A stretch of 64,000 nucleotides of DNA from a phage. This document shows positions 36,028 through 39,891 of the stretch, piece by piece. Position numbers and translations under genes: made by a program. Below the pieces are notes generated by a model that saw nothing but the letters and a program-made list of their open reading frames with translations, had not been told where the DNA came from and did not search any database. The stretch lies in assembly GCA_037431425.1 (NCBI GenBank), contig GCA_037431425.1_4129.1. One strand, 5' to 3'. Each line of letters starts with the position of its first letter. Positions within the stretch are counted from its first letter, which is position 1.

Positions 36028-36143
<116 letters not shown>

Positions 36144-36150
36144 CAAAAGA

Positions 36151-36224
36151 CGGGGTATAGCACAATTGGATAGTGCAAGAGAATTCTAATCTCTAGGTTG
36201 GGGGTTCAAGTCCCTCTACCTCGG
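36151..36224 (+). tRNA. tRNA-Arg (anticodon UCU)
   Basis: manual fold: acceptor CGGGGTA/TACCTCG, anticodon stem AGAGA/TCTCT, loop ATTCTAA, T-loop TTCAAGT. Confidence 0.75.
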
Positions 36225-36248
36225 CCTACTTCAATTAAAGGTTAAACC

Positions 36249-36413
36249 ATGACGCATGAAGAATGGATGAATGACATTAATTTTAGATATGCAGGTATCG
36301 GTAACTGGAGAAAGTATCATTGGGAAATCATATCAGACCCAGCAGAATACGATAAACTTATGAATCATGAAGTGTATCCGTGGTTCTTTATTGAAATAAT
36401 GGTACGATTATGA
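36249..36413 (+). CDS. MTHEEW-family small protein (54 aa), tandem copy 1
   Basis: not in track; MTHEEWMNDINFRYAGIG... Confidence 0.45.
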   Translation: MTHEEWMNDINFRYAGIGNWRKYHWEIISDPAEYDKLMNHEVYPWFFIEIMVRL

Positions 36414-36570
36414 CACATGAAGAATGGATGAATGACATTAATTTTAGATATTCGGGTATCGGTAAATGGCTAAAGTATCATTGGGAATTCATTTCAGAGC
36501 CACATCTGTATGATAAACTTATCAACGATTCTGCATATAAAATGTACTTAATTGAACTACTGGTACGAAC

Positions 36571-36574
<4 letters not shown>
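36410..36574 (+). CDS. MTHEEW-family small protein (54 aa), tandem copy 2
   Basis: MTHEEWMNDINFRYSGIG...; start overlaps upstream stop. Confidence 0.45.
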
Positions 36575-36743
<169 letters not shown>

Positions 36744-36747
36744 AATC

Positions 36748-37188
<441 letters not shown>

Positions 37189-37216
37189 GTATCTTAACAA
37201 CAGAAGGTATATTGAA

Positions 37217-37456
37217 ATGGGTAAGTATTTTGTGAGTTATAGTTATAATGTATCACGAAAGATTCCACGCGGTGACGGAATGGGATGGTCTTATGATGCA
37301 TATACTTTAAATGAGTCATGTATCATCGAATTACAAGAAAAAGACCTTGACATTTTAAAAATCAAACAATATATTCTTGATGTTGAATTGGCACATCGTA
37401 CTGATACCTATCCAGATGTAAACAACATCAGCATCTTAGTACTAACCAAAGTATAA
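37217..37456 (+). CDS. hypothetical protein
   Basis: ATG 37217 after AGAAGG RBS; track start 37187. Confidence 0.5.
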   Translation: MGKYFVSYSYNVSRKIPRGDGMGWSYDAYTLNESCIIELQEKDLDILKIKQYILDVELAHRTDTYPDVNNISILVLTKV

Positions 37457-37526
37457 GATAAAAAGAACTTTACTAAATAATTCCACTGGAGATTAATATG
37501 TTTAAAGATGAACGTCCAGATTTGTA

Positions 37527-37565
<39 letters not shown>

Positions 37566-37571
37566 GAATTC

Positions 37572-37925
37572 CACAATCAGACGTATATGGTGTAAGTTAC
37601 GTCGATGCTATCCAGAACAAGATCTCTGGTACTCTAGGAAGTGGTGAATGTTAACCTAGACGGGTTTGATAATTGGACGATAGGCAATTATTACTTGACT
37701 AGCAGGTTGAAACTAGAGGTGACAGTCCTTCACCAAACTGGAAAGCCGGATGGACTTTTATTTAAAAGGGTAAGGCGTGGAAATATGTTTACTGTAGTTG
37801 CTTTTAGTAGCCTGTACGCCCCACGTCAAGGTAGTCGAAAGGCAAGTTAAAACGGGTGGTTATAAAGCTGAATTAACAGCGGCGTTTAAAAGCGTCACCA
37901 TCCATTTTTTTAATTAAAGTTGGCT
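37572..37925 (+). ncRNA. candidate structured noncoding RNA (unclassified)
   Basis: noticeably more GC-rich than flanks; only a poor 69-codon ORF; directly downstream of consensus promoter; inside tRNA cluster. Confidence 0.3.
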
Positions 37926-37927
37926 AT

Positions 37928-38295
<368 letters not shown>

Positions 38296-38305
<10 letters not shown>

Positions 38306-38324
38306 TATTCAGTACTGATATAAT
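38296..38324 (+). promoter_or_regulatory. sigma70-type promoter (TGGACA-17-TATAAT) for tRNA-Ser
   Basis: -10 ends 6 nt before tRNA 5' end; spacer contains TTCAGTACTG. Confidence 0.55.
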
Positions 38325-38330
38325 TAATTT

Positions 38331-38417
<87 letters not shown>

Positions 38418-38429
38418 TAAATTGTTCCA

Positions 38430-38516
<87 letters not shown>

Positions 38517-38566
38517 CTGATATTGTTATTATATGAGTTCTAACGATAATGAAACACTAGGAACAT

Positions 38567-38737
<171 letters not shown>

Positions 38738-39817: not shown

Positions 39818-39891
39818 GCCTCAATAGCAAAATTGGTAATGCACACGTTTTGTAAGCGTGAGATTTTTCCGTTCGAGTCGGAATTGGGGCA
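39818..39891 (+). tRNA. tRNA-Thr (anticodon UGU)
   Basis: manual fold: acceptor GCCTCAA/TTGGGGC (one GU), anticodon stem CACGT/GCGTG, loop TTTGTAA, T-arm TTCCG-TTCGAGT-CGGAA; variable loop 6 nt (slightly atypical). Confidence 0.65.

Follow-up and report, generated by a model that had tools for sequence, protein, structure and literature searches.

To our knowledge, the stable RNAs encoded in phage tRNA clusters have stayed unexplained since the work on T4 and T5 in the 1970s and 1980s, and those of T4 and T5 are, as far as we know, each confined to one phage group, which leaves little comparative leverage. Species 1 and 2 of the lytic phage T4 (rnaC and rnaD, 119-139 nt) lie in its tRNA cluster and abut a tRNA gene, rnaC ending in a T-arm-like hairpin; the T4 stable RNAs are reported to be non-essential. 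The T5 counterparts (RNAI, RNAIII, RNAIV, RNA1, RNA2, RNA2H, RNA3 and RNAX), annotated as 'stable RNA with unknown functions', are interleaved, and often flush, with tRNA genes. GOLLD and ROOL, structured non-coding RNAs of unexplained function that are often phage-borne and adjoin tRNA genes, are three to four times larger than the RNA described below and come mainly from Gram-positive and rumen settings; both figure among the subjects of a preprint (bioRxiv 10.1101/2024.12.08.627333). As late as 2022, the T4 stable RNAs were still described as having no known function (PMC9697503). Here we describe two structured RNA genes, Unit A and Unit B, at positions 37566-37925 (360 nt, + strand) of a 64,000-nt stretch of phage DNA (the window), where a first-pass annotation had proposed one promoter-driven, GC-enriched stable RNA analogous to those of the T4 tRNA cluster. 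We are highly confident that these are structured non-coding RNA genes; the fuller reading, in which they are two separate genes and Unit A is processed, stable and active in trans on a host factor, is in our judgement probable.

At about 97% identity, the window matches Asteriusvirus jumbo phages, 121Q and PBECO4 among them, and on this basis the source phage is a 121Q/PBECO4-like (Asteriusvirus-like) jumbo phage and not T4. The studied stretch lies within the phage tRNA region, with tRNA-Ser and tRNA-Arg at 36057-36226, tRNA-Ser, tRNA-Met and tRNA-Asn at 38330-38730 and tRNA-Thr at 39818, all on the + strand. The compositional argument made earlier stands, the GC content of 37566-37925 (0.411) comparing with a window mean of 0.331 (sd 0.041, 200-nt windows) and being equalled by just 0.5% of 360-nt windows. 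So does the consensus promoter, which is kept in all Asteriusvirus matches and in the G17 deletion variant described below. This promoter and the elements of Unit A, as resolved by comparison with homologues and by covariance models (CMs), are as follows.

37537-37565, + strand: sigma-70-type promoter TTGACT-17-TATAAT with a TG extension before the -10 element (11/12 match).
37567-37755, + strand: Unit A, a structured RNA of ~190 nt with helices P1-P7 and pseudoknots PK1 and PK2; full-length matches to CMs R1/R3 in 19 sequences from at least six phage lineages, with covariation.
37571-37574, + strand: 5' strand of PK1, CCAC, pairing with GUGG at 37641-37644 in the P3 loop.
37580-37603, + strand: P1 hairpin GACGUA/UACGUC with loop UAUGGUGUAAGU; six of six pairs changed on both sides.
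37612-37629, + strand: P2 hairpin CCAGA/UCUGG; four of five pairs compensatory, 100% of cells paired.
37633-37660, + strand: P3 hairpin UCUAGG/CCUAGA, whose loop holds the 3' strand of PK1 (37641-37644); six of six pairs compensatory.
37668-37692, + strand: P4 hairpin GAUAAUUG/CAAUUAUU with loop GACGAUA; seven of eight pairs compensatory, loop invariant in 19/19 sequences.
37699-37716, + strand: P5 hairpin CUAG/CUAG with a 10-nt loop CAG....AAA and an invariant UGA on its 5' side, drawn from pair counts and the alignment.
37718-37734, + strand: P6 hairpin GGUGA/UCACC, with variants GGUAA/UUACC, GGUUA/UAACC and GGUCU/AGACC; its loop CAGUCCU holds the 5' strand of PK2 (37725-37728).
37738-37749, + strand: P7, a short, weak hairpin CUGG aaag CCGG; 91% paired, one compensatory pair, poorly kept in Aeromonas phages.
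37752-37755, + strand: 3' strand of PK2, GGAC, pairing with GUCC in the P6 loop.

The fold was evaluated on a model-guided alignment of 19 Unit A copies, representing about seven independent lineages. Standard pairs are formed by 96.6% of cells, a share that drops to 26-42% once the 3' partners are shifted by one to three columns. Of the 47 pairs, 32 have changed on both sides; the covariation check against homologous phage sequences suggested by the first-pass annotation came out positive. The covariation score is 0.50 (0.06-0.09 in the slid controls), and none of 500 shuffles reaches any of the five measures; pairing support was also computed on a set of 13 sequences. A long-range fold returned by RNAalifold on the raw MAFFT alignment, judged partly wrong in that it paired the 3' strand of P2 with the 3' region, was dropped because P2 covaries locally.

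Both ends of Unit A are, in this comparative model, buried in H-type pseudoknots that join the 5' tail to the P3 loop and the 3' tail to the P6 loop. PK1 takes the forms CCAC/GUGG, GCAC/GUGC (Aeromonas), CCUCA/UGAGG (KP13-16), CUACA/UGUAG (L026) and UUCCAC/GUGGGA (L093), with one pair showing double changes on fixed columns and register-shifted compensations in KP13-16, L106 and L026. PK2 behaved as an H-type pseudoknot when tested, with double changes in three of its five pairs (GC 8, AU 6, GU 1 and UA 1 at column pair 191-221; UA 12, CG 6 and UG 1 at column pair 192-220) and with the variants GUCC/GGAC, ACCC/GGGU, GCCC/GGGC, UAUCC/GGAUA, AUUCC/GGAAU and UCCC/GGGA. The invariant elements are unpaired: CGG(G) lies between P3 and P4, UGA precedes P5, and the loops of P4, P5 and P6 hold GACGAUA, CAG....AAA and CCU, respectively. 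Column pair 124-158 is GU, and column pair 205-214 UG, in 15 of the 19 sequences each; such G.U-rich pairs would be A.C on the opposite strand, which assigns the fold to the transcript of the + strand. Resemblances noted by eye to the CR-I region of RNase P, T-box stem I, a Shine-Dalgarno sequence and the sarcin-ricin loop were discarded, the matching bases being either unconserved or inside covarying helices.

Unit A is more widespread than the stretch as a whole. By blastn, all 360 nt are found at about 80% identity in Klebsiella RaK2-like jumbo phages, and the first ~190 nt, that is Unit A alone, recur at 85-91% identity in T4-like Bragavirus (Proteus PM2 and Pm5461, Morganella Mm5, Shigella SdyM_006) and in T5-like Novosibvirus (Proteus phage 1 and 2). 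More distant copies occur in Klebsiella KP13-16 (Stephanstirmvirinae, phi92-like) and in Aeromonas phages 65, CC2 and AP1 (Emmerichvirinae). With blastn and the covariance models taken together, full-length copies are present in Asteriusvirus, Alcyoneusvirus, Bragavirus, Novosibvirus, Stephanstirmvirinae and Emmerichvirinae, as well as in one uncultured 120-kb viral contig (IMG/VR, L026) and six metagenomic contigs. CM R1, built from seven enteric-phage copies, recovers all the divergent ones at full length (E = 1e-22 to 1e-30) and found nothing besides Unit A copies in 0.5 Mb of pattern-matched IMG/VR loci. Of the 50 loci that a loose pattern had returned from IMG/VR, none proved real apart from the known members and L026; the metagenome pattern scan returned 49, of which six contigs, carrying seven copies, were real. 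Across 185,579 bacterial and archaeal species genomes (one genome each) there were 31 pattern matches and none was real, nor was there any match in 5,426 Escherichia coli genomes or in the PLSDB plasmids; host mimicry and a prophage origin were set aside for want of such matches.

Outside the jumbo phages, Unit A in every lineage occupies a gap between the genes of a tRNA cluster and has the same orientation as the tRNAs, in line with the analogy to the T4 tRNA-cluster RNAs drawn at first pass. The neighbouring tRNA genes differ from one phage to the next, as listed here.

PM2, SdyM_006 and Pm5461: tRNA-Gly upstream, tRNA-Asp downstream.
Proteus phage 1: tRNA-Leu upstream, tRNA-Ser downstream.
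KP13-16 and L106: tRNA-Leu upstream; tRNA-Ser (KP13-16) or tRNA-Met (L106) downstream.
Aeromonas AP1 and P19: tRNA-Pro upstream, tRNA-Thr downstream.
L093: two copies of Unit A with tRNA-Arg between them.
L026: tRNA-Thr downstream.

The fit is tight in several lineages, Unit A starting 0-5 nt past the CCA of the upstream tRNA, and in Bragavirus and Novosibvirus phages it ends 6-15 nt before the next tRNA. Aeromonas phages and L026 carry an extension of ~90-190 nt between Unit A and the next tRNA; the Aeromonas extension (L005, L058-L060; e.g. L058 545-627) is a conserved ~90-nt pair of hairpins that reaches tRNA-Thr and is unrelated in sequence to Unit B. Directly after Unit A in KP13-16 (L006 2632-2680) lies a 3' fragment of tRNA-Leu, comprising the variable arm, T arm and ACCA, with a 92% match to the tRNA-Leu of Felix O1-like phages. 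This fragment raised the possibility of a split-tRNA or group I intron, which was rejected since the other lineages have no flanking tRNA halves and no intron model matched. The tRNA strand annotated in the Mm5 record (L061) is opposite to that found by ARAGORN and Rfam.

The genes around Unit A are not shared: an all-against-all blastp of the flanking ORFs (open reading frames) found no protein family common to more than two lineages. Unit A is 85-91% identical between phages with unrelated surrounding genes, and is duplicated in L093. Among closer relatives, EJP2 has Unit A without Unit B, JNE01 has Unit B without Unit A, and the G17-, phAPEC6- and Sharanji-type Asteriusvirus lack both units together with the ORF at 37187-37456. 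In these genomes the promoter is retained with just 37 nt from the start of Unit A, followed directly by the homologue of ORF 37928-38305 (G17: L147 1470-1560); the 37-nt-only match is seen in phAPEC6, Sharanji and others. Both units being missing from some close relatives, they are accessory, and in the sequence comparisons Unit A has the hallmarks of an accessory element that is exchanged horizontally and under selection as an RNA.

The earlier proposal of one 360-nt RNA holds as far as a structured RNA is concerned but fails as to a single gene, the second part of the stretch being a separable unit with the following elements.

37769-37911, + strand: Unit B, a second structured RNA co-transcribed with Unit A here, made of B1, B2 and the Y module; own promoter in relatives, covariation.
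37774-37827, + strand: B1, a long irregular hairpin with outer stem 37774-80/37821-27; homologue in Kuravirus XT18.
37834-37843, + strand: B2, hairpin GUC-GAAA-GGC with a GAAA tetraloop.
37854-37911, + strand: Y module, a Y-shaped three-way junction with a 7-bp stem GGGUGGU/ACCAUCC and hairpins 37867-37880 and 37881-37896, then A+U7 (37904-37911); CM R2, covariation.

In RaK2, L078 and L075, a promoter of its own serves Unit B. The interval between the two units holds a hairpin and a TTGAAC-17-TATAAT promoter in RaK2 and in L078, a metagenomic contig, and in contig L075 the two lie ~400 nt apart, with a promoter-driven non-coding stretch and tRNA-Arg between them. Since A and B occur apart or alone in relatives, they are separate genes that happen to lie fused in the 121Q lineage. 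The promoter-driven stretch between Unit A and tRNA-Arg in L075 (reverse strand, about 800-610) is ~170 nt long and apparently non-coding, with the long complementary ends GGTGAGTAACAT...ATGTTACTCACC. For B1 and B2, 95% of cells are paired (27-38% when slid) and three pairs are compensatory in only five sequences, one of them XT18. The B1 homologue in Kuravirus XT18 sits within a CDS-free region of ~790 nt rich in GC hairpins (L062 714-1502), which gave no Rfam match and may be another large phage non-coding RNA.

The Y module is better represented. The strong copies found with CM R2 number 10 and are confined to 121Q/RaK2-like DNA; 96.5% of cells are paired, compared with 30-62% when slid, with 6 of 16 pairs compensatory. 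It also occurs outside Unit B, directly after tRNA genes (tRNA-Ser in RaK2, tRNA-Arg in L078) and, in EJP2, between tRNA-Ser and tRNA-Arg. A simple terminator scan does not list it, since the structure is branched; in the window a 7-bp stem is followed by A+U7. A further copy stands directly upstream of Unit A in RaK2 and L078, where its sequence reads TTGACA-17-TATTAT and is plausibly the Unit A promoter; the position of the RaK2 copy implies that termination there is incomplete. Judging from these sequences, the Y module is probably a 3'-end or terminator structure and not a tight terminator. Its 7-bp stem with 4-bp and 5-bp arms loosely recalls the acceptor, D and T arms of a tRNA, but it has neither a T-loop sequence nor a CCA end.

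Several features of the surrounding region deserve mention. The promoter at 37537-37565 is one of four near-identical 29-nt words, TTGACTAAATAGTTCAGTACTG(A)TATAAT, at 36748-36775, 37157-37184, 37537-37565 and 38296-38324, which precede successive small units of the tRNA region; the word is also found in the metagenomic relative L075. Directly 5' of this promoter is a nine-codon mini-ORF, MFKDERPDL, with a GGAG Shine-Dalgarno sequence (37499-37528), and right after tRNA-Arg three tandem paralogous ORFs of 54 aa (MTHEEWMNDINFRY...) follow one another head to tail (36249-36735).

The Rfam scan recommended at first pass as a route to the identity of the RNA led nowhere: Rfam 15 gave no match at the gathering threshold over the whole window, only one 12-bit chance match at E<=10 on 37400-38000, and none, permissive thresholds included, for three divergent Unit A homologues. 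Neither ARAGORN nor the tRNA models found a cloverleaf, and there is no tmRNA, in the studied stretch. The analogy with T4 survives in the cluster location and not as homology to rnaC/rnaD: R1 (filters off) and R3 found nothing above noise in T4 69500-74500, and blastn of the stretch gave no Tequatrovirus match. With its 190 nt and two pseudoknots, Unit A also differs in build from the shorter rnaC and rnaD. The T5 stable RNAs are no closer (best E = 0.2 when R3 was run over T5 20-60 kb and, filters off, over 28-42 kb), and the Novosibvirus copies of Unit A occupy the same kind of slot between tRNA genes. GOLLD and ROOL, unlike Unit A, are present in Rfam, and cmscan finds no relation. The acceptor arm of viral tRNA-like structures is formed by a pseudoknot of a hairpin loop with the 3' tail, the same topology as PK2. 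Unit A differs from the pseudoknots of plant-virus tRNA-like structures and of tmRNA in lacking a CCA end, a cloverleaf and any ARAGORN or tmRNA call, and in the insertion of P7 in the connecting loop. We found no description of this RNA in the literature searched, although a 2023 set of ~10,000 unnamed viral RNA candidates (PMC10690425) might contain it.

How might such an RNA be made and used? Units A and B would be transcribed rightward from the promoter at 37537-37565. By analogy with the T4/T5 cluster RNAs, host tRNA-processing enzymes could release Unit A: an RNase E-type activity would cut at the conserved AAUU that follows the upstream tRNA, RNase P would cut at the downstream tRNA, and exonucleases would then trim back to PK2. 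The terminal pseudoknots would then protect both ends and let Unit A accumulate as a stable RNA, whose invariant single-stranded loops (GACGAUA, CAG..AAA and CGGG) may bind a host factor common to Enterobacterales and Aeromonas, in an accessory or counter-defence type of role connected with tRNA biology. We infer action in trans on a host factor from three properties, namely that no protein gene travels with Unit A, that the invariant loops are single-stranded, and that the element is patchy and dispensable. Unit A also lies in a stand-alone transcription unit both here and in RaK2. On this analysis, it is likely that Unit A is a stable, processed RNA that acts in trans; any specific class of target, for example tRNA-directed defence nucleases, is doubtful at best. 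A still more specific form, in which Unit A is a horizontally mobile, self-sufficient RNA effector that either acts as a small ribozyme or decoys or inhibits a host enzyme of tRNA-directed defence or RNA turnover, is a tentative proposal that we think unlikely to be right as worded.

Several points weigh against this picture. The alignment was fitted to the nested helices of the model, which inflates the paired fraction, although many of the compensations are also visible on the raw MAFFT alignment. Many of the 19 sequences are close relatives, and the independent lineages number only about seven. The folding energy of the single sequence is unremarkable compared with shuffles (z about -1), in keeping with the earlier caution that the fold could not be judged from one sequence, and the minimum-energy single-sequence fold disagrees with the comparative model. 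Finally, the -10 element ends at 37565 and the predicted transcription start, C37571-A37573, falls inside the 5' strand of PK1 (CCAC, 37571-74), part of which would thus be cut away. Either PK1 is shortened or dispensable in the 121Q lineage, or the full-length RNA arises by read-through from the promoter at 37157; no terminator was seen between that promoter and Unit A.

Could the stretch instead encode a protein? The first-pass annotation had found no credible ORF, and this proved correct. The 69-aa frame, listed here, is not a gene, and the other + strand ORFs of the stretch are scraps of 27 and 39 aa.

37641-37850, + strand: 69-aa ORF with a GTG start, not a gene; frame broken in homologues, no family match.

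Its GTG 'start' is the 3' strand of PK1 (37641-37644). The frame is interrupted in most homologues, namely in PM2, in RaK2 (the nearest genus), in Pm5461, Mm5, KP13-16, the Aeromonas phages and others. A stop falls at codon 3 in PM2, SdyM_006 and Pm5461 and at codon 17 in RaK2, the frame shifts in Pm5461 and Mm5, and distant lineages have several stops each; neither Pfam nor PHROGs gave a match. Hypothetical proteins are annotated here in the records of 121Q, PBECO4-like and Salmonella SD phages, which would favour a real small protein encoded by this or another small ORF and conserved at the protein level. The stops and frameshifts, the lack of a family match and the pairwise compensation of substitutions within RNA helices leave that reading scarcely credible, and the conserved translated small protein that would have spoken against an RNA was not found. 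Hypothetical-protein CDSs overlap the RNA genes in GenBank records of 121Q (gp129/gp130) and Aeromonas phage 65 (L005 2391-2443); the CDS annotations over the RNA genes in several records are probably miscalls.

Three further explanations keep a nucleic acid function and place it elsewhere. The stretch might be a cis-acting leader of the riboswitch or attenuator type, controlling the 125-aa gene at 37928-38305 through the Y-shaped terminator. The U-run (37911) and the ATG at 37928 have no promoter between them, which means that this gene must be read through the A-B-Y region, and in RaK2 and L075 an ORF likewise follows directly after the Y module. Against this, tRNA genes and no shared ORF follow Unit A in the T4-like, T5-like, phi92-like and Aeromonas phages, no neighbouring protein family recurs, A and B occur separately, and G17-type phages have the same downstream gene behind the same promoter without A or B, all of which makes a leader improbable. 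Unit A could alternatively act in cis on its neighbours, as a processing or 'punctuation' element or self-cleaving ribozyme that separates or stabilises adjoining tRNAs; it is flush with tRNA 3' ends in at least five independent contexts and 6-15 nt upstream of the next tRNA, and two terminal pseudoknots would block exonucleases. We give this little probability as well: in the window and in RaK2, Unit A has its own promoter and no tRNA in its transcription unit, its 190 nt with invariant loops far exceed what a spacer needs, and there is no match to the self-cleaving ribozyme families in Rfam.

The mosaic, mobile-looking distribution, with 85-91% identity between otherwise unrelated phages and the duplication in L093, would also suit an element acting as DNA, with the RNA fold incidental; a promoter/terminator cassette, a hotspot of recombination and the target of a homing endonuclease are examples. 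Seg and HNH endonuclease genes are present in the same clusters, and the RaK2 Y module overlaps the TTGACA-17-TATTAT promoter. But helices stay paired through G.U, which would be A.C on the other strand, 32 pairs carry double changes across lineages of about 70% identity, and the orientation of Unit A always follows that of the tRNAs, so that we consider a DNA-level element very improbable. Each of the rivals loses weight in view of the settings found in other phages, the promoters that serve the units alone, the covariation specific to one strand and the interrupted ORF.

In the tentative effector reading, Unit A would be traded between the tRNA clusters of lytic phages of Enterobacterales and Aeromonas. 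As a kind, such elements are old, being known from T4 and T5, while the Unit A family and its double-pseudoknot architecture appear to be undescribed. Unit A is common to jumbo, T4-like, T5-like, phi92-like and Aeromonas phages and comes with a covariation-backed double-pseudoknot model. The family is absent from Rfam, where a model could be deposited. With natural deletion and duplication variants and cultured, tractable hosts at hand, the role of such RNAs becomes directly testable. If the effector reading is true, it would provide the first function for the stable RNAs of phage tRNA clusters.
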